Shown one piece after another: positions 4,382 to 63,243 of a DNA stretch of 64,000 bases. Source of the stretch: Patescibacteria group bacterium (GTDB lineage: Bacteria > Patescibacteriota > Minisyncoccia > Phycocordibacterales > UBA9973). The notes below the pieces were generated by a model. That model made no database searches, had not been told where the DNA came from, and was given only the letters and a program-made list of their open reading frames with translations. Numbering within the stretch: the stretch's first letter is position 1; every line of letters begins with the position of its first letter. The DNA lies in the NCBI GenBank assembly GCA_040390725.1, contig JAZJXT010000002.1:28450-92449 (forward strand), read 5' to 3'. The translations under genes and the position numbers were made by a program.

Positions 4382-4705
4382 TTAATTTCCCCTTAGAAAG
4401 GGTATGATTAGGGTATGTTCAATGCTCGGGCACGGTGTCTCATCGTTTGTTTTTAAAACTTTGTGTTTTAAGCCATCCTCAGAGGGATAATCTAAAAAAA
4501 CATGCACCTCATCGTCTATCTTAATAAGAAACATTAATGCCCCATTTCTTTTAGGGTTTTTCTCCTCAATTTCTTTAAGGTATCCTTCTATATATTGTCT
4601 ATTTAGACAATATATTTTTAGCTTTTCTTTAAAAGGCAACAACATTGTTGCTACGGTCCGTCCTTGGACGTGACATTCTTCGGTGTACAGGGGGTCGTCG
4701 TTCAT
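4382..4705 (-). CDS. hypothetical protein (107 aa)
   Basis: ORF only; no recognisable motif. Confidence 0.4.
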   Translation of the reverse strand: MNDDPLYTEECHVQGRTVATMLLPFKEKLKIYCLNRQYIEGYLKEIEEKNPKRNGALMFLIKIDDEVHVFLDYPSEDGLKHKVLKTNDETPCPSIEHTLIIPFLRGN

Positions 4706-4865
4706 ATCTTTTATTTTAAAATTTAAGTGAAAAAATCAAAATCCCCAAAGATTTAGGAACTTGAATTTTTCCACTAAATTTTTTAAATCAAAAAATTTTA
4801 CCCGAATACAATCATAAGGAGCCTTCCATTTAAGGATATTAGTCTTTTATAGCAGAAAGTCAAAT

Positions 4866-5942
4866 TTAGGATTTTTCCAACATATTGAAAACTTTTTCGT
4901 TGGTTAGAACCATCTCGGCGTGCATTTTTGCTCGTTCTGGGTCGGCATCTTTGTAGTGTTCTAGGATATGCGCAACTTCATTCGCAACTTGTTCATCGTC
5001 GGCTTTGATATTTTCTATTTTAGCTATATCGTTTAAAATAAGAGCAAGCTTGGCTTTTTTCTCACCATCTTTGCGGAATTCTTTTTTCAAATCTTCAACT
5101 GTTTTGTTTAAGTGCTTTAAATACTCATCGAATTTCAAACCCATTTGAGTGATGTCGGATTCCATTTTATATAATATTTTACCGACTTCAGATTCAATTA
5201 AAATTTCCGGTAAATCCGCCTTAGTTTCTTCGATTATTTTTTCAATAATTTTTAGACGAGTTTTTTCTTTCGCTTGATTTACTTTTTCGAGCTTTATATT
5301 CTCGCGAAGTTTTTCAGTAAAATCAGCCACGTCCTTGAAGGGTCCGAGAGCTTGCACAAAATCATTATTAAAAGGCGGAAGCTCAGGGGCAAGATTTTTC
5401 TCTTCTTCGGTGGGTGTATGCACTGTGCCGTCTTCGTGAGTGTGAGGTTCTTTCATGTGCATTTTCGGCGCGCGGGATTTGCGGATATCCATAATAGTGT
5501 TTTCCACATCTTCATCAGTCACTTCCACATTTTTTTCTGCATCTGTGGTGTCGGCAATTATTTTCTTTGAGATTTTTTTGTAATCAGGAAGTTTCATTTC
5601 CGGCAAGATTGCGGTTTTGATTTTAAAAGTCAAAGGGTTATTGCGGGCGAGTTTTGTAATCATTATTTCCGGACGGCTGATAGCATCAATTTTATTTTCT
5701 TCCAAAATTTTCGGATAATATTCTGCTAAAGCCATCTCTGCCATTTCTTCCAAAACTCTTATTTCTGGGATATTAGCAGTTAAGATATTCTCTGGGGCTT
5801 TGCCTTTCCTAAAGCCATCCATCTCGAAATTCTCGCCAAGTTTCTTTAAAGCGTTTTTATAATAAGCCTCAAAAACACCGGACTCTATTTCACCCTCCAT
5901 TTCCACCATACTTTGTGGCAATTTGTTTATTTTTATTTGCAT
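4866..5942 (-). CDS. tig: trigger factor (short form, 358 aa)
   Basis: N-terminal ribosome-binding signature GFRKGKAP. Overall TF-like N- and C-domains. Shorter than the canonical ~430 aa (reduced or absent PPIase domain). Confidence 0.8.
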   Translation of the reverse strand: MQIKINKLPQSMVEMEGEIESGVFEAYYKNALKKLGENFEMDGFRKGKAPENILTANIPEIRVLEEMAEMALAEYYPKILEENKIDAISRPEIMITKLARNNPLTFKIKTAILPEMKLPDYKKISKKIIADTTDAEKNVEVTDEDVENTIMDIRKSRAPKMHMKEPHTHEDGTVHTPTEEEKNLAPELPPFNNDFVQALGPFKDVADFTEKLRENIKLEKVNQAKEKTRLKIIEKIIEETKADLPEILIESEVGKILYKMESDITQMGLKFDEYLKHLNKTVEDLKKEFRKDGEKKAKLALILNDIAKIENIKADDEQVANEVAHILEHYKDADPERAKMHAEMVLTNEKVFNMLEKS

Positions 5943-5978
5943 AGGGCTATCCTATACTAAAATAGACTTTTTTTCAAA

Positions 5979-6063
5979 TTTCTACTATAACAAACATATG
6001 TCGACTATCGTAGAAAAGCAAATTGTCTACTATGTCTACATATGGAAGGATAGTAGACAATTT
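5979..6063. promoter_or_regulatory. cluster of GTCTAC-containing repeats including a perfect 14-bp inverted repeat aaattgtctactat / atagtagacaattt (6020-6033 / 6050-6063)
   Basis: Read directly. Additional half-sites tttctactata (5979-5989) and atgtctacata (6033-6043). Located upstream of tig (minus strand) and downstream of ppa. Confidence 0.4.
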
Positions 6064-6084
6064 TGGTGTTTTCGCATGTGGGCA

Positions 6085-6142
6085 TTAAGCAAGAACGGTT
6101 CTTGCTTAAATAGAACTGGGCAACAAACCCTTCAGCGGGTTT
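6085..6142 (-). terminator. two tandem perfect hairpins downstream of ppa (minus strand)
   Basis: ttaagcaagaac g gttcttgcttaa (6085-6109, 12-bp stem) and aaaccc ttcagc gggttt (6125-6142), followed by a G9 homopolymer at 6144-6152. Confidence 0.45.
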
Positions 6143-6175
6143 AGGGGGGGGGTTAAAATAGCAAACATTTATAAT

Positions 6176-6757
6176 TTATTTCTCCAATTTCGGCGCGTAT
6201 TCTTTTTGGTATCTTTCAGCGCATTCTTTGATCACTTTTATCGCTTCTTCTTTTTCGTGAAAAGTTTCCACGACACCGGTGCCGGGCTTTTTCATAGCTT
6301 TGTAATTCTCCCAATAGTATTTGGTTTCTTTTTCCCAATATTCACCGAGGTCTTTATAACTTTTTATGTGATCTGATCTTTTGTCGTCATTTAATACCGC
6401 GATTATTTTGTCGTCTACTTCTCCGCCGTCTATAAATTTCATTATGCCTATTATGCGCGCTTCTACTAATGAACCCGGCACGAGTGGCTCGCTGATGTTT
6501 ACTATTTCTACGTCTAGAGGGTCATTATCTTGATCCCAAGTTTGAGGGATAGCTCCGTAAGTAAAAGGATATGCGAGTGAAGAATATCCGACGCGGTCGA
6601 GTTTGAGTTGTCCGCTTTCTGTTATTATTTCATATTTATTTATTGAACCGGCTGAGACTTCGACAATTACATTTACAACATCATCTTTTGCAAAAGGCGA
6701 AATGACGTGTAAAAGGTTGAGCATGTATTTACTTGGGGGAACGTTTATGTTTGCCAT
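6176..6757 (-). CDS. ppa: inorganic pyrophosphatase (family I)
   Basis: DNDPLDV and EIV motifs. 193 aa. Confidence 0.9.
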   Translation of the reverse strand: MANINVPPSKYMLNLLHVISPFAKDDVVNVIVEVSAGSINKYEIITESGQLKLDRVGYSSLAYPFTYGAIPQTWDQDNDPLDVEIVNISEPLVPGSLVEARIIGIMKFIDGGEVDDKIIAVLNDDKRSDHIKSYKDLGEYWEKETKYYWENYKAMKKPGTGVVETFHEKEEAIKVIKECAERYQKEYAPKLEK

Positions 6758-6827
6758 AGGATTATTATACTTTAATCAAAAAAAAATGCAAAATTTTAAT
6801 TAAATGTATTTATGATACACTTAGGCT

Positions 6828-7313
6828 GTGAATAAAAATACTTTTGCATACATTGATGCTTCAAATTTAAAGTTTGGCGTAAAACAAAGTGGTTGGGATC
6901 TTGATTACAAATCATTCAGGTCTTGGCTTCGTGATAAATTCGGTGTTTCTAAGGCGATACTTTTTATGGGACTTATGCCTGACAATTTTGAATTATATAA
7001 TCATTTGCAAAGCATAGGTTATGATATTTCTTTTAAACCTACTATTACTAGCAAGGAAGGCAAGACAAAAGGAAATGTGGATGGTGAACTTATTTTAACC
7101 ATTGCAAAAGATTTTTTTGAAAATAATTTAGAGAGCGCTGTGCTCGTAGCTGGTGATGGGGATTATCATTGCATTGTGGAATTCTTAAAAGAAAAAAATA
7201 TACATATTAGTATTGTGTCTCCAAACAGAAAATATTTGTCGCTTTTATTGAAAAGAACGAATGTGCCTATAATTATTCTTGATAAATTTATTGAGAAACT
7301 AAAGATAAAATAA
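6828..7313 (+). CDS. NYN-domain (LabA/PIN-like) protein
   Basis: AYIDASNL ... GNVDGEL ... VLVAGDGDY acidic-residue pattern of NYN/LabA-like nucleases. Confidence 0.7.
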   Translation: MNKNTFAYIDASNLKFGVKQSGWDLDYKSFRSWLRDKFGVSKAILFMGLMPDNFELYNHLQSIGYDISFKPTITSKEGKTKGNVDGELILTIAKDFFENNLESAVLVAGDGDYHCIVEFLKEKNIHISIVSPNRKYLSLLLKRTNVPIIILDKFIEKLKIK

Positions 7314-7317
7314 AAAA

Positions 7318-7356
7318 GCCCCCAGATATGCCGTGACATATCAGGGGTCTTTTTCT
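7318..7356 (+). terminator. rho-independent terminator
   Basis: gcccccagatatg-ccgtgac-catatcaggggtc stem (one mismatch) followed by tttttctt. Confidence 0.6.
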
Positions 7357-7439
7357 TGTTTATGAGTATATATTATCATATGTAAAAAATGATGCAAGTT
7401 TTTGCTTTATAATTAAAATTTTGTTATTATTTTATTCAT

Positions 7440-7925
7440 ATGGATGAATCTTGGGTGCCACAACCGTTAAAAGAAGATAATAGACCTGATTATATCAAAA
7501 ATAATGAGGTCAGTACTGGCGAAATAGAATATGGCGGGAAAAAATATTTTTTTACTGTTTTAAAAAAGGAAGTGGGACCAAAAACATTACCTGGTTTTTT
7601 AGGTAAAGATGGCGAACATTTTTTTATTTCAGAAGAAGCGCCTGAAAAATTTAGAGTCTTACAATTAACTCATGAGATTATTGAGTTTACAGAGCTAGAA
7701 GGCAAAAAGGGGAGATGCCTTGAAGCATTAAAACGGGAACTTTTATTAGTACCAGATGAGATTAGAAAGGAATACATTGAATATCGAAGAAATCTTTTTA
7801 ATAATTTAATTCAATATTACAAGAAATTATTAGAAGATAAAAAATTAGAACAGAAAATAAAAGAAAGTTATGAAGATATTGAGAAGGAAATGAAGGGAAG
7901 CTATGAGTATTTGTGTACTTTATAA
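7440..7925 (+). CDS. hypothetical protein (161 aa)
   Basis: ORF only; charged C-terminal half. Confidence 0.4.
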   Translation: MDESWVPQPLKEDNRPDYIKNNEVSTGEIEYGGKKYFFTVLKKEVGPKTLPGFLGKDGEHFFISEEAPEKFRVLQLTHEIIEFTELEGKKGRCLEALKRELLLVPDEIRKEYIEYRRNLFNNLIQYYKKLLEDKKLEQKIKESYEDIEKEMKGSYEYLCTL

Positions 7926-34838: not shown

Positions 34839-35261
34839 ATGAAAATAAAAGTTAAAAAATTAAAAGATGGGGCGAAGTTACCGACTTATCATCATCCGGG
34901 TGATGTCGGTATGGATATGTATGCCATGGAGGAAATTATTGTTGGCCCTGGTGAGCACGCGCGTATATGGCACGGTTTTGCTTTGGAATTCCCGATAGGA
35001 TATGGCGCATTGGTCATGGATAAGGGCAGTATTTCAAAGGCAGGATTGCATACTATGGGGGGAGTTTTTGATGCCGGGTATAGGGGTGAATACAATACGC
35101 ATTTGGTAAATTTATCTGACAAGCCTTATACTATAGAAGTGGGGGATAAAGTTTCGCAACTTGTGATCACACCTATTGTTGTTGCTGACTTAGAAGAAGT
35201 TGATTCACTTAGCGAGTCGGCTCGCGGTGAGGGAAGGTTTGGGAGTACGGGTAAAAAATAA
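34839..35261 (+). CDS. dut: dUTP diphosphatase
   Basis: Five dUTPase motifs including C-terminal RGEGRFGSTG. Confidence 0.9.
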   Translation: MKIKVKKLKDGAKLPTYHHPGDVGMDMYAMEEIIVGPGEHARIWHGFALEFPIGYGALVMDKGSISKAGLHTMGGVFDAGYRGEYNTHLVNLSDKPYTIEVGDKVSQLVITPIVVADLEEVDSLSESARGEGRFGSTGKK

Positions 35262-35262
35262 A

Positions 35263-37050
35263 ATGAGTATAAAAAATAAGCTAGAAAATTTAATAAAAGA
35301 TGCGTTAAAAAAGTTAGAAATGAATTCGCCAGACGGCGAAGTTAATTTTGTCGTAGAACATCCGGAAGATTTTAAGAATGGGGATTACTCTACGAATGTG
35401 GCATTGGTTTATGCTAAGAAATTAAAAATGAAACCTGTTGATTTGGCGGAGAAAATTTTAGCAGAACTTTATGAAGATACAGATGAAAAGGGCATTAAGG
35501 GTGTGGAAAATATAGAGATAGCCGGCGCGGGGTTTATAAATTTTTATTTAACACGTGAATTTTTCAGTGATTCTATAAAAGATATTTTACACAAGAATGA
35601 AGACTGGGGCAGGAATAATTTATTGGAAGGAAAAAAAGTAATGGTGGAATACACTCAGCCGAATCCTTTCAAGCCTTTTCACATAGGGCATTTGATGAGC
35701 AATGCCATCGGAGAGTCAGTTTCGAGAATTGTAGAATTCTCCGGCGCGAAAACTATCCGTGCGAATTATCAGGGTGATGTTGGTCCGCATATTGCGAAAG
35801 CGATTTATGGGATTATGAAAGACCCTGAGTACTTAGAGGCAAGACCTCTCAGTAGAGGTCTTGCCTCTAAGTCGGCATCTTGGATTGGGGAGTGTTATTC
35901 AAAAGGCAGTGATTTGTATGACAATGATCCGGAAGCAAAAAAAGAAATTGATGTAATAAATAAAAAAGTTTACGACAAGAGCGATGAAGAAATAAATAAA
36001 GTTTATGATTGGGGGAGGAAAGTCACCCTCGAAGCATTTGAAGAACTTTATAAAATTCTCGGCACGAAATTCGACTATTATTTTTTTGAAAGCGAGATGG
36101 CACCGATAGGTGAAAAAATTGTCCGCGCAAATGTGCCGAATGTTTTTGAAGAATCCGACCCCACACCAGAGCAAGCTCAGTACGGGGCAAGAGGCGCTAT
36201 TATTTTTCGTGCTGAGAAGTATAACCCTAAATTGCATACGCGAGTGTTCTTAACTTCACAAGGCATACCGCTTTATGAGACGAAGGAAATAGGTTTGACG
36301 ATGACGAAATTTGAAAAAGAAAATCCTGATATTTCTATTGTTGATACAGCTATTGAGCAAGGCGAATATATGAAAGTTGTTCAGCAGGCTATCGCACTCA
36401 TGCATCCGGAATTGGAAAAGAAAATGTTGCATATCACGCACGGTATGATGCGCCTCGCATCGGGCAAAATGTCTTCCCGAAAAGGTAACGTAGTCACAGG
36501 TGAGTCATTGTTGCGAGATTCTATGGATGTCGTATTGGAAAAAATCCAAGATAGAGATTTTACCGAAGAAGAAAAGAAAAAAGTCTCAGAAGTCGTCGGC
36601 GTGTCGGCGCTCAAATATTCTATTTTGCGTTCTTCTGTCGGCTCGGATATTGTTTATGATTTTGATAAATCAATTTCGTTTGAAGGGGATTCCGGCCCAT
36701 ATTTACAATATTCCGCTATCCGCGCGAAATCAATCCTCGCAAAAGCCAAAAGTGAAAATTTGGAGGCTAAACCTCCAAAAGAAGTTCCAGAACAAATTTC
36801 AGATTTAGAAAAAATTCTTTATCGTTTCCCCGAAGTTGTCGCGCGCTCATATGAAGACCTCGAACCGCACAATATCGCCACATATTTGACCGAGCTTTCA
36901 TCATCCTTCAATTCTTTTTACGCCAATACACAAATCTTAAACAATGAAGATAAATTTTCTTCATATTATTTAGCACTCACCAAAGCATTTTTCATCACAA
37001 TGCAAAACGGCCTTTGGCTTTTGGGAATTAAATTGCCGGAGAGGATGTAA
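35263..37050 (+). CDS. argS: arginyl-tRNA synthetase
   Basis: Start at the ATG at 35263 (MSIKNKLENL), 1 nt after the dut stop. PNPFKPFHIGHLMSNAIG (HIGH), DALR-type C-terminus. Confidence 0.9.
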   Translation: MSIKNKLENLIKDALKKLEMNSPDGEVNFVVEHPEDFKNGDYSTNVALVYAKKLKMKPVDLAEKILAELYEDTDEKGIKGVENIEIAGAGFINFYLTREFFSDSIKDILHKNEDWGRNNLLEGKKVMVEYTQPNPFKPFHIGHLMSNAIGESVSRIVEFSGAKTIRANYQGDVGPHIAKAIYGIMKDPEYLEARPLSRGLASKSASWIGECYSKGSDLYDNDPEAKKEIDVINKKVYDKSDEEINKVYDWGRKVTLEAFEELYKILGTKFDYYFFESEMAPIGEKIVRANVPNVFEESDPTPEQAQYGARGAIIFRAEKYNPKLHTRVFLTSQGIPLYETKEIGLTMTKFEKENPDISIVDTAIEQGEYMKVVQQAIALMHPELEKKMLHITHGMMRLASGKMSSRKGNVVTGESLLRDSMDVVLEKIQDRDFTEEEKKKVSEVVGVSALKYSILRSSVGSDIVYDFDKSISFEGDSGPYLQYSAIRAKSILAKAKSENLEAKPPKEVPEQISDLEKILYRFPEVVARSYEDLEPHNIATYLTELSSSFNSFYANTQILNNEDKFSSYYLALTKAFFITMQNGLWLLGIKLPERM

Positions 37051-59257: not shown

Positions 59258-59298
59258 CCCGATGTCGGACATATGGGAACCATATGTCCGACATCGGG
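59258..59298 (+). promoter_or_regulatory. perfect 19-bp inverted repeat (3-nt loop) between ssb and rpsR
   Basis: cccgatgtcggacatatgg gaa ccatatgtccgacatcggg; 13 nt upstream of the rpsR ATG. Confidence 0.5.
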
Positions 59299-61509: not shown

Positions 61510-61836
61510 ATGATAGATCTCAAACAATTACAAAAAGAAATAATGCAAAATAAGTTAGAGAAGGGTTTTAATACTGATGTGACCCATGAATTTTGTCGAG
61601 CCTACGAAGAACTCTCGGAGGCATTTTCAAAATATAATAAAGGTCAAGACGGGATAGCCGAAGAATTTGCAGATGTCGCCATATTTTTACTAGGTATGTG
61701 CGAAACACTAGGTTTTGATTTGGAGAAAGAAATAAAAAATAAAGTTCAAAAAAATAAAAATAGAAAATATAGAAAAGAAAAATCACCAGACGGCAAAGAT
61801 ATTTTTATACGTATAAAGACCGACGAAGATCCTTAG
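61510..61836 (+). CDS. MazG-like nucleoside triphosphate pyrophosphohydrolase (small)
   Basis: EELSEA...EEFADVAIFLLGMCETLGFDLE...K...KNRKY EExxE/ExxD pattern. Confidence 0.6.
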   Translation: MIDLKQLQKEIMQNKLEKGFNTDVTHEFCRAYEELSEAFSKYNKGQDGIAEEFADVAIFLLGMCETLGFDLEKEIKNKVQKNKNRKYRKEKSPDGKDIFIRIKTDEDP

Positions 61837-61884
61837 AAAATTGTCTACTCTCACTATCATATGAGTTTCATAGTAGACAAAATT
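61837..61884. promoter_or_regulatory. inverted repeat aaaattgtctact-N20-agtagacaaaatt (same motif as at 6020-6063)
   Basis: Read directly; upstream of the 62064 gene, immediately after the MazG-like stop. Confidence 0.4.
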
Positions 61885-61911
61885 AATTACAGTTTTTTGT
61901 TAAGTGCACCA

Positions 61912-61940
61912 TTGACATTAAAAGTTTTATATGCTACATT
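61912..61940 (+). promoter_or_regulatory. candidate promoter TTGACA-N17-TACATT
   Basis: ttgaca (61912-61917), 17-nt spacer, tacatt (61935-61940). Confidence 0.35.
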
Positions 61941-61985
61941 TTTTGTGATGCTAGTTCGTTGAAAAGATCTTGTTTTTGATGAAAA

Positions 61986-62039
61986 TTTTGAAAACTATCA
62001 TAACAACTATTTACTTGGTTTGTATGATAGTTTTCAAAA
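61986..62039 (+). promoter_or_regulatory. perfect 17-bp inverted repeat in the 5' leader of the 62064 gene
   Basis: ttttgaaaactatcata -N20- tatgatagttttcaaaa. Confidence 0.4.
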
Positions 62040-62063
62040 TTAATTTCACAAATTCAAATCAAA

Positions 62064-62630
62064 ATGAAAAGAATAGTTATCATGGCTGTAATCAGCTTGA
62101 GTATTTGTTTATCCGTTTTTTCTCAGGAAAATAAAAATGGATGGTTTGCAAATCTTCAAACGCAAACAGGTGACAGTATTAGGTTATACTTAATTTCTAA
62201 TATAAGTGTAGCTTATACAAAACAGTTCAATAATGTTGCAAAAGCAGCTGGACCTTTAACAAAAAGTGATGACGAAATTTTTAAGGTTGCTGAGCTCTAC
62301 AAGGCACCAGAGAAAGATTCGATTGAAACAGTTGTTTTAGTTAACTTTCCTAATGGTGATGGAAGTTGGTCTAAAGCTCTCAGCTGGGGAGTTAAGAATA
62401 ATCTTCGTATAACAGACCCACACCTTGTTTTTGCAATCGCAGAGAAGTTCCCAAAGCTTAACTGGAAACCTCCTTTTGGTAGTTGGACATACCTTATTGA
62501 GACAACAGGTTGCACTTTTAATGAAAGTAGACAAATGTGCTGTGTTTTGTTTAATGGTTTGGATAGAGCATCTTTATTGCTTTACCAAAAAGCCGGGCAA
62601 AAAAATACCTGGTTTGCTTTTCGAAAATAA
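62064..62630 (+). CDS. secreted hypothetical protein (188 aa)
   Basis: Signal peptide MKRIVIMAVISLSICLSVFS|QE; no recognisable domain. Confidence 0.45.
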   Translation: MKRIVIMAVISLSICLSVFSQENKNGWFANLQTQTGDSIRLYLISNISVAYTKQFNNVAKAAGPLTKSDDEIFKVAELYKAPEKDSIETVVLVNFPNGDGSWSKALSWGVKNNLRITDPHLVFAIAEKFPKLNWKPPFGSWTYLIETTGCTFNESRQMCCVLFNGLDRASLLLYQKAGQKNTWFAFRK

Positions 62631-62657
62631 AAAGTAATTTAAAAAAGAGAAATCTTC

Positions 62658-62688
62658 CCTGTAATAAAATACAGGGTTTTTTATTTTT
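62658..62688. terminator. bidirectional rho-independent terminator between convergent genes
   Basis: ccctgta ataaaa tacaggg followed by ttttttatttttt; A-run upstream. Confidence 0.6.
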
Positions 62689-62694
62689 TAAAAA

Positions 62695-63243
62695 TTACTT
62701 TTTTTCATAAACCACAAAAGAATACGGCAAGGGGTTTTTGTCGTCGGGTTGGTGATTTTCGCGCCAGGTTTCTTTCCAGATGTTTTTATCTATTGCAGGG
62801 AAAAACACATCGGCAGTTTTGTCTTCGGCACTTATTTCTGTGATGTCTAGGTGCGTCGCCACTGTATTTATGGCTTGTCGGTAAATATCCGCTCCGCCTA
62901 TTATGTAAACTTTTTCTTCCCCCTCTCCTTTATAAGGAGAGGGCTGGGGTGAGGTGCTTACTTTTTTAACTGCCTCCTCTAAAGAATGCACTACGTCTAT
63001 GCCGAGGCGTAGATAGCTTTTATCTCGTGTGATTATTATATTTCTGCGGGATGGCAAAGGTCGTCCAAGTTCGCCAGAAGGGCTTTTGCCCAATGATTCA
63101 AAAGTTTTCCTGCCCATTATTACCGGATGCCCCAAAGTTTTATCTCGAAAATATTTTTGATCTGCCGGCATTTTCCAAACTAAATCATTACCCTTGCCGA
63201 GCTCATTATTTTTTCCTATGGCTGCTATTAGTGAAATTATCAT
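62695..63243 (-). CDS. folA: dihydrofolate reductase
   Basis: MIISLIAAIGKNNELGKGNDLVWKMPADQKYFRDKTLGHPVIMGRKTF. Contains the in-frame palindromic insert (STSPQPSPYKGEGEE). Confidence 0.9.
   Translation of the reverse strand: MIISLIAAIGKNNELGKGNDLVWKMPADQKYFRDKTLGHPVIMGRKTFESLGKSPSGELGRPLPSRRNIIITRDKSYLRLGIDVVHSLEEAVKKVSTSPQPSPYKGEGEEKVYIIGGADIYRQAINTVATHLDITEISAEDKTADVFFPAIDKNIWKETWRENHQPDDKNPLPYSFVVYEKK
62919..62955 (-). repeat. RPE-like palindromic element, copy 3 (in-frame within folA)
   Basis: Reverse complement is cctcaccccagccctctccttataaaggagagggg, identical to the pgk copy; same orientation relative to its host gene. Confidence 0.6.

Follow-up and report, generated by a model that had tools for sequence, protein, structure and literature searches.

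We examined a window of 64,000 nucleotides (nt) from a Patescibacteria group bacterium genome (contig JAZJXT010000002.1, positions 28,450 to 92,449), and within it a gene at 62064–62630 (plus strand) together with the sequence that precedes it, where an earlier note had placed a GTCTAC inverted repeat, a candidate promoter and a perfect 17-bp palindrome (61837–62063). All three features are present in the sequence. They form part of a lineage-specific insert of 858 bp (61837–62694, plus strand) that lies between a MazG-like gene, whose stop codon is at 61834–61836, and a DHFR gene that is convergent with it (62695–63243, minus strand, stop codon 62695–62697). The insert holds a short inverted repeat (IR1), a candidate sigma-70-type promoter, a long inverted repeat in the predicted 5′ leader (IR2), an open reading frame (ORF) for a protein of 188 amino acids (aa), and a bidirectional, unstranded intrinsic terminator for both the inserted gene and the DHFR gene (62629–62703), with the stem CCCTGTA...TACAGGG at 62657–62676 and A-rich and T-rich flanks. 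The gene is a solitary homologue of the variable proteins of diversity-generating retroelements (DGRs), and IR2 has counterparts in the leaders of homologous genes, where we favour its reading as an RNA hairpin.

By its neighbouring genes, the window comes from a Candidatus Nomurabacteria/Paceibacterota genome (Patescibacteria). We compared the MazG|DHFR junction across 23 related Nomurabacteria/Paceibacterota loci (fetched loci are denoted by L and a number). The ends of the tblastn matches to the MazG-like and DHFR genes were 6–31 bp apart in 19 of the 23 loci, often with only a bidirectional terminator between them, and a gap of 50–121 bp was seen in L007, L008, L010, L019, L020 and L066. 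None of the fetched relatives carried the insert, and its only other copy was on an identical 3.6-kb Logan contig (L001, from SRR26324628). Different sequences occupy the junction elsewhere. In L032, the MazG|DHFR junction holds an unrelated insert of 817 bp (L032:4131–4948) that has a terminator and a promoter-like sequence of its own, and a complete DGR lies between the dCMP deaminase and DHFR genes of a related Nomurabacteria genome (L024:6507–9023). The latter has a target gene of a different family (6637–7347) with a variable region (VR, 7220–7329) and a template repeat (TR, 7585–7694), which are 110 nt long and 84% identical, followed by a bAvd-like gene and a reverse transcriptase (RT) gene. 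The MazG|DHFR junction is a recurrent insertion point and appears to be a hotspot for DGR-type cassettes. As a separate observation, the DHFR gene of the window contains an in-frame, GC-rich palindromic element (62911–62945; CCCCTCTCC-TTTATAA-GGAGAGGG-CTGGGGTGAGG) that adds ~12 residues (SPQPSPYKGEGE) and contributes to a length of 182 aa, as compared with 162 aa in L024. Because members of this element family also fill the MazG|DHFR intergenic spacer of L019 and L066, this element looks mobile and tolerated within coding sequence.

The palindrome described in the earlier note is real, but its arms are longer than the 17 bp given there. The perfect stem of IR2 is 19 bp, with AATTTTGAAAACTATCATA at 61984–62002 facing its complement at 62023–62041 across a 20-nt loop, and an imperfect extension brings the arms to 35 nt (61973–62007 and 62018–62052, plus strand). 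The extended stem, with 31 Watson-Crick pairs and one G·U pair (32 in all), stops 12 nt short of the ATG. No inverted repeat in 20 dinucleotide shuffles of the window had a perfect arm longer than 12 bp, indicating that IR2 is far beyond chance. Folded as sense-strand RNA, IR2 is thermodynamically exceptional (-30 kcal/mol, z = -7.3). The claim of unusually long palindromes thus holds for IR2; by contrast, perfect 9-bp inverted repeats with loops of up to 30 nt numbered 15 in the window against 9.5 per dinucleotide shuffle, and IR1, which is of this size, is by itself at chance level. We found no second copy of IR2, whether in the window itself or across 1.1 Mb of fetched loci, and a scan of viral contigs with the IR2 pattern gave no matches. 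A search of the whole window against Rfam 15 at gathering thresholds also gave no match; with relaxed thresholds it returned only generic hairpin matches to eukaryotic microRNA precursors, scoring at most 22 bits against cut-offs of 79–195.

The candidate promoter upstream of IR2 (TTGACA-N17-TGnTACATT, 61912–61940, plus strand) consists of the hexamers TTGACA (61912–61917) and TACATT (61935–61940), which together match 10 of 12 consensus positions, separated by a 17-nt spacer that falls within the 16–18 nt of sigma-70-type promoters, and it lies 5′ of a gene. A TG dinucleotide precedes the -10 hexamer by one base. Matches of at least 10 of 12 positions occurred 37 times on both strands of the window, so that such a match says little by itself; only two of the 37 combined the TG with a 17-nt spacer, and both of these were 5′ of ORF starts. 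Equivalent promoters were found in homologous loci at equivalent distances from the hairpin, including the same TTGACA-N17-TACATT in L117. Transcription of the inserted gene most likely starts near 61947, ~7 nt past TACATT, which would give a leader of ~117 nt. Between this predicted start and IR2 lies a short leader box, AGTTCGTT (61953–61960, plus strand), whose form in the gene family is AGTTC[T/G]T[T/C].

A word-indexed protein search found no relatives of the 188-aa gene, whereas an exhaustive HMMER search recovered 208 cluster representatives (E <= 0.001), with identity of at most 40% among the 150 matches listed. Sequence searches of the family against Pfam, PHROGs and the PDB gave no match, viral contigs gave no match to family peptide patterns, and Foldseek searches against the PDB and BFVD gave no match. 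Modelling with AlphaFold from an alignment of eight sequences gave a confident structure, with a pLDDT of 83.9 and a pTM of 0.80 and with residues 1–23 unstructured; from the single sequence, the pLDDT was 32. The family has a C-type-lectin-like fold. The C-type lectin fold is the known scaffold for DGR variable proteins (PMC5006420, PMC5758913).

The genomic context of the homologues bears on the same assignment. In L105, L108, L110 and L112, the last ~117 nt of the gene are repeated 350–560 nt downstream with 85–91% identity, and at 57 of the 58 mismatches the downstream copy, the TR, has an adenine. Genes for bAvd-like proteins and RT follow these VR/TR pairs, and Pfam matches to RVT_1 and bAvd were confirmed in L108 and L024. 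A tblastn search with the RT and bAvd-like proteins of L108 matched L105/L106 (bAvd only), L107/L108, L110, L112, L061 and L024 (RT only). Because homologues have VR/TR pairs with adenine-specific mismatches together with bAvd and RT genes, we conclude that the family consists of DGR variable proteins. A TTTTGTTC-like motif 3′ of the VR is common to several of the family loci. In the window, the same tblastn search gave no match (best E = 1.2), and no repeat of the 3′ end of the gene was found within the 64 kb. The window copy is solitary, since no TR, RT or Avd accompanies it in these 64 kb; a DGR in another part of the genome could still target it remotely, and a TR for it would end ...CTGGTTTGCTTTTCG.

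Secretion of the protein had been proposed earlier. The homology shared by the family begins near residue 22 (NKNGWFANLQ), and the 21 residues before it (MKR-IVIMAVISLSICLSVF-SQ) resemble a Sec signal peptide; by inspection, MKR / IVIMAVISLSICLSVF / S-QE fits the pattern of a charged n-region, a hydrophobic h-region and a cleavage site with a small residue. Most of the homologues that we read have a polar N-terminal domain of ~45 residues or no such domain, and P0164 starts with a hydrophobic segment. From its N-terminal sequence, secretion of the window protein is plausible, but it is not a general trait of the family.

We next compared the upstream regions of 11 distinct family loci; 10 metagenome loci came from one narrow pattern. 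A long hairpin of 15–28 pairs, with one defect allowed, lay within 150 nt of the start codon in 8 of the 11 loci (the window, L103, L104, L105, L110, L113, L116 and L117). Hairpins of at least 16 pairs were present in 7 of the 11 family loci, as compared with 12 of 156 (7.7%) background genes of the Candidate Phyla Radiation (CPR) that have an upstream spacer of at least 100 nt, a set that includes the terminators of upstream genes. The family hairpins are 49–62 nt long, and 22–68 nt separate their ends from the start codon. They begin 30–43 nt past the -10 hexamer in six of the seven loci for which both a hairpin and a promoter were called, the exception being L117 (64 nt); L104 had no promoter call. 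The architecture reported for the window in the earlier note, with a promoter followed by a long leader hairpin and then the start codon, is also found ahead of homologous genes from other genomes, with promoters of sigma-70 type. Because the arms of the window hairpin differ in sequence from all others, its homology to the other hairpins rests on position and structure.

Other leader sequences are also shared within the family. In the window, L104, L110, L113 and L116, the leader box precedes the start codon by 111–125 nt, and a MAFFT alignment of the leaders shows no other conserved block. Counts of 8-mers in the leaders were not above those in shuffles, and only the consistent position of AGTTCTT stood out. 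The context of the start codon, ACGTTATGCA (N-terminus MQ...), is conserved at the nucleotide level in L104, L105, L107, L110, L111 and L112.

The hairpins differ in their properties between the two strands. Sense-strand folds were more stable than antisense folds at all eight hairpin loci, and the helices contained 19 G·U pairs as compared with three A·C 1x1 mismatches. Since a strand-symmetric DNA site would give equal numbers of the two, the excess of G·U favours RNA. Between L103 and L117, 6 of 20 stem positions had changed on both sides and were still paired, as had 9 of 17 between L105 and L110, and the compared stems kept an invariant core of CAGC/GCTG or TAGC/GCTA. Given this pattern of pairing, we favour the interpretation that the leader hairpin is an RNA structure on the sense strand. 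One subgroup keeps more than the core. L105 and L116 have the same arms, GTAGTCATAGCC / GGCTATGACTAC, and those of L104 depart from them solely at the outermost base (ATAGTCATAGCC), even though protein identity is only ~34% (L105/L116) and ~46% (L105/L104) and the leaders outside the arms do not align. The invariance of these arms in the face of such divergence suggests that a sequence-specific reader probably exists.

The same invariance is what a DNA site would lead one to expect, and the best supported of the alternatives is that IR2 is a double-stranded DNA operator or a cruciform, located 3′ of the promoter and recognised by a palindrome-binding transcription factor. A candidate for this factor is the putative helix-turn-helix (HTH)-like N-terminal domain of many family members, which would repress its own gene by acting as a roadblock; many homologues have an N-terminal segment of ~45 residues (e.g. 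NRQGVQLAKGAREFGISRTEF) that by eye is a putative HTH. We consider this explanation unlikely. A DNA operator predicts neither the predominance of G·U over A·C nor the greater stability of the sense folds, and arms of 13–20 bp that are 10–28 bp apart are unlike those of dimeric operators. Moreover, the arms do not track protein kinship, in that L110, whose protein is 59% identical to that of L105, has different arms, whereas L116, at 34%, has the same arms; and the window protein is without the N-terminal domain, yet the hairpin is retained.

Returning to the RNA hairpin, we propose that the insert is an autonomous cassette (promoter, structured leader, gene and terminator) inserted into a genome of the Nomurabacteria/Paceibacterota (CPR), where it separates two convergent housekeeping genes, that its leader structure is conserved in the gene family, that IR2 works post-transcriptionally as an RNA stem-loop, and that the gene encodes a solitary DGR-type protein. 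We put the probability of this explanation as a whole at roughly 0.55. Transcription would start ~7 nt after TACATT, and IR2, as the local version of the family hairpin, would begin ~25–37 nt into the transcript, downstream of the AGUUCUU box. The hairpin would then exert its effect post-transcriptionally: a trans-acting factor would recognise the long duplex and thereby set the stability or the translation of the mRNA. RNase III is one candidate for this factor, and would fit a duplex of ~20 bp or more; a sequence-specific RNA-binding protein is another, and would fit the invariant arms of the one subgroup. In the minimum-energy fold of the window leader, UUCGU of the box pairs with AUGAA of the start codon. 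Since 12 nt separate the lower stem from the ATG and the box pairs with the start codon in this fold, occlusion of the start codon is possible in the window, and the lower stem and the box may sequester it in this copy.

A more specific role would be that of a dedicated DGR recognition element, with the stem-loop bound by bAvd, by RT or by the N-terminal domain of the variable protein. If this were so, binding of the hairpin by a DGR factor would couple expression of the variable protein to its diversification, the near-invariance of the arms among proteins of 34–46% identity would be explained, and the window copy would be a remnant that kept its recognition hairpin through the loss or relocation of the retroelement. 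We regard this role as rather improbable. The known cis-elements of DGRs, the initiation of mutagenic homology (IMH) sequence and a hairpin/cruciform, sit 3′ of the VR and not in the 5′ leader. We know of no description of an upstream leader hairpin as a DGR feature, and none was described in the titles or abstracts found by a literature search.

IR1 lies at the left edge of the insert and consists of the perfect 9-bp inverted arms TTGTCTACT / AGTAGACAA (61841–61849 / 61872–61880, unstranded) with 22 nt between them. It begins 5 nt past the stop codon of the MazG-like gene, where relatives carry a terminator hairpin, and as plus-strand RNA it folds weakly (-11.9 kcal/mol, z = -1.8), with an AU-rich stem and no U-tract directly after it. 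IR1 is notable because every TTGTCTA on the plus strand of the window is palindromically paired: there are three, each with a TAGACAA within 40 nt (4595/4604, 6023/6054 and 61841/61874), whereas none of 34 TTGTCTA in ~0.7 Mb of other loci, mostly from related Patescibacteria, is paired with TAGACAA. The second TTGTCTAC palindrome (6020–6063, unstranded) has perfect arms of 14 bp with 16 nt between them and lies in the ppa–tig spacer; the third TTGTCTA palindrome (4590–4615, unstranded) has perfect arms of 12 bp with 2 nt between them and lies inside a minus-strand ORF (4382–4705) beside tig. The similarity of IR1 to the 6020–6063 copy was reached by none of 2000 shuffles, and from their sequences the two are clearly versions of one element of ~45 nt, two indels apart. 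IR1 also shares the words ACTATCATA and CAAAATTAATT, in the same order, with IR2 (1 of 2000 shuffles); because of these shared words, IR1 looks like an IR2-type module with the TTGTCTAC sequence in its central stem. No similarity was found between IR2 and the 6020–6063 copy.

All three TTGTCTA palindromes lie at breaks of synteny with relatives. The break at IR1 is the left edge of the insert, and that at 6020–6063 is the ppa–tig spacer, where relatives carry two extra genes; this palindrome is absent from the related genomes. The ORF that contains the third copy gave no match in Pfam and no tblastn match in any fetched locus, and two of three relatives have clpP directly 3′ of tig instead. 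A scan of viral contigs with the IR1 pattern gave 30 matches, which were unrelated hairpins and near the estimated chance number. IR1 is a copy of a genome-specific TTGTCTAC palindrome and is probably a boundary hairpin or the scar of a repeat element, to judge from its sequence and position, rather than a dedicated operator.

These observations invite the explanation that the palindromes are footprints of mobile elements, similar to miniature inverted-repeat transposable elements (MITEs) or repetitive extragenic palindromic (REP) sequences, with no regulatory role, and that IR2 came to lie in the leader by chance. The presence of two copies of one ~45-nt element with indels, the location of all three TTGTCTA palindromes at synteny breaks, and the visible mobility in this clade of another palindromic family (window 62911–62945, L019 and L066) are all consistent with it. 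For IR2, however, the absence of a second copy from the window, the fetched loci and the viral contigs argues against a mobile element, and because homologues have hairpins at the same position in the leader, IR2 was inherited with the gene and is not a chance insertion. We therefore reject this reading for IR2 and have partly folded it into our account of IR1; as an explanation of the whole it is improbable.

As a side observation, the region around tig is rearranged relative to that of relatives (window 4382–7925). The order in L100 and L101 is NusA, pyrophosphatase, two small genes, tig, clpP and RNase Y, and in L098 a gene for 148 aa separates tig from clpP. The window lacks the two small genes and clpP; ORF 4382–4705 follows tig, and two plus-strand genes, one with an NYN domain and one unknown, lie between nusA and ppa. 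A run of nine Gs (6144–6152) lies ~25 nt 3′ of the pyrophosphatase stop codon on the coding (minus) strand, beside two terminator-like hairpins, and could be a slippage-prone tract or an assembly artefact.

The GTCTAC repeat had been proposed as an operator. IR1 would then be the site of a repressor or activator, giving the gene two-factor control, and the same factor could act on tig through 6020–6063. The pairing of all three TTGTCTA in the window agrees with this proposal, as does the location of two copies 5′ of genes, ~86 nt before the inferred transcription start here and 78–121 nt before the tig start codon. It fares poorly on other counts, in that half-sites are conserved but spacing is not fixed: arm spacings of 2, 16 and 22 nt do not fit one dimeric binding mode, and one copy is inside an ORF. 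No such site occurs in the control regions of the homologous genes or at the tig loci of relatives, and the position just after the upstream stop codon is that of a terminator hairpin in relatives. We consider it very doubtful that IR1 is an operator, and support for the alternatives decreases from the DNA operator at IR2 through the mobile element and the IR1 operator to an attenuator. That last idea, also raised earlier, in which IR2 is a transcription attenuator or intrinsic terminator, is suggested by the very stable hairpin between promoter and start codon but is extremely unlikely, since the AU-rich stem is followed by AAUUUCACAAAUUC with no U-tract, none of the seven homologous hairpins has a U-tract, the terminator scan that called the canonical terminator at 62657–62676 did not call IR2, and leader folds contained no alternative anti-terminator pairing.

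Two further comparisons of IR2 were set aside. An integron attC site, a hairpin of the IS200/IS605 or HUH-protein type and a rolling-circle origin were dropped; no GTTRRRY/RYYYAAC boxes were seen by eye, the family alignment lacks an HUH motif, no Pfam transposase or Rep domain matched, and the hairpin loops are not conserved. A likeness between the left arm of the window hairpin, TTTTGAAAACTATCAT, and the right arm of that in L104, TTTTTGGCTATGAC, was disregarded because their topology with respect to the loop is opposite.

Several points weigh against a family-conserved RNA stem-loop. The long leader hairpin is absent from three family loci (L107, L111 and L112), the arms of the window hairpin cannot be aligned to those of the homologues, and an analysis of six leaders with MAFFT and RNAalifold misaligned the arms and gave no consensus structure. 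The 11 loci are not independent, as L104, L105 and L116 share arms, and so do L103 and L117. Stem changes on both sides were counted by manual anchoring of the arms, and the invariant arms of one subgroup would also fit a DNA-binding protein. Pairing between the box and the start codon, which is predicted for the window, is shifted in L113 and L104 and absent from L105, L110 and L116. The promoter and transcription start are matches to a consensus that has 37 comparable matches in the window, and the role suggested for IR1 rests on three copies in 64 kb.

Leader stem-loops for processing and stability control by RNase III are known from the E. coli rnc and pnp leaders and from the phage lambda N leader. 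Like these, the hairpins described here are near-perfect leader duplexes of ~20 bp or more, with no U-tract and a variable loop; unlike these, one subgroup keeps its stem sequence invariant across distant homologues. The locus resembles DGRs such as that of Bordetella phage BPP-1 (mtd-avd-TR-brt) in the C-type-lectin-like fold of its gene family and in four homologues with a C-terminal VR, a downstream TR, a bAvd-like gene and RT, but it differs in that no TR, RT or Avd lies in the 64 kb of the window. As a compact unit with its own promoter and terminator between conserved neighbours, the insert is similar to phage "morons" and other autonomous gene cassettes, and the different inserts at the same junction in L024 (the complete DGR) and L032 are also cassette-like; unlike phage morons, it has no match in viral contigs or viral structure libraries. 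The IR1 group is similar to REP sequences and bacterial interspersed mosaic elements (BIMEs), which are short imperfect palindromes with shared sequence, present in several copies, mostly at gene ends, with a GTAG motif, but only three copies are visible in 64 kb and one of these is inside an ORF.

Conserved in position and partly invariant in sequence, the leader hairpin is a new candidate cis-regulatory leader RNA, which would belong to a single family of DGR variable proteins. Such proteins are believed to serve CPR bacteria as fast-evolving ligand binders, and to our knowledge the control of their expression is little understood. The hairpin and the AGUUCUU box offer a concrete handle on this regulation, although the finding would be an ordinary one if the hairpin were merely an mRNA-stability element. 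The locus also presents a DGR-type target gene that persists without its retroelement, at a junction occupied by a complete DGR in a relative, and such a solitary target gene bears on how DGR cassettes are gained and decay.

Two other long palindromes were observed in the window. One is a perfect inverted repeat of 19 bp with a 3-nt loop, CCCGATGTCGGACATATGG / CCATATGTCCGACATCGGG (59258–59298); it lies between an SSB-like and an S18-like ORF, both recognised only from their translations, and overlaps the start listed for the S18-like one. It may be a regulatory or terminator hairpin in a run of S6-SSB-S18-like genes. A second perfect 19-bp inverted repeat, with a 4-nt loop, ACTTAGAGGCAAGACCTCT / AGAGGTCTTGCCTCTAAGT (35831–35872), lies inside the listed ORF at 35200–37050 (plus strand).

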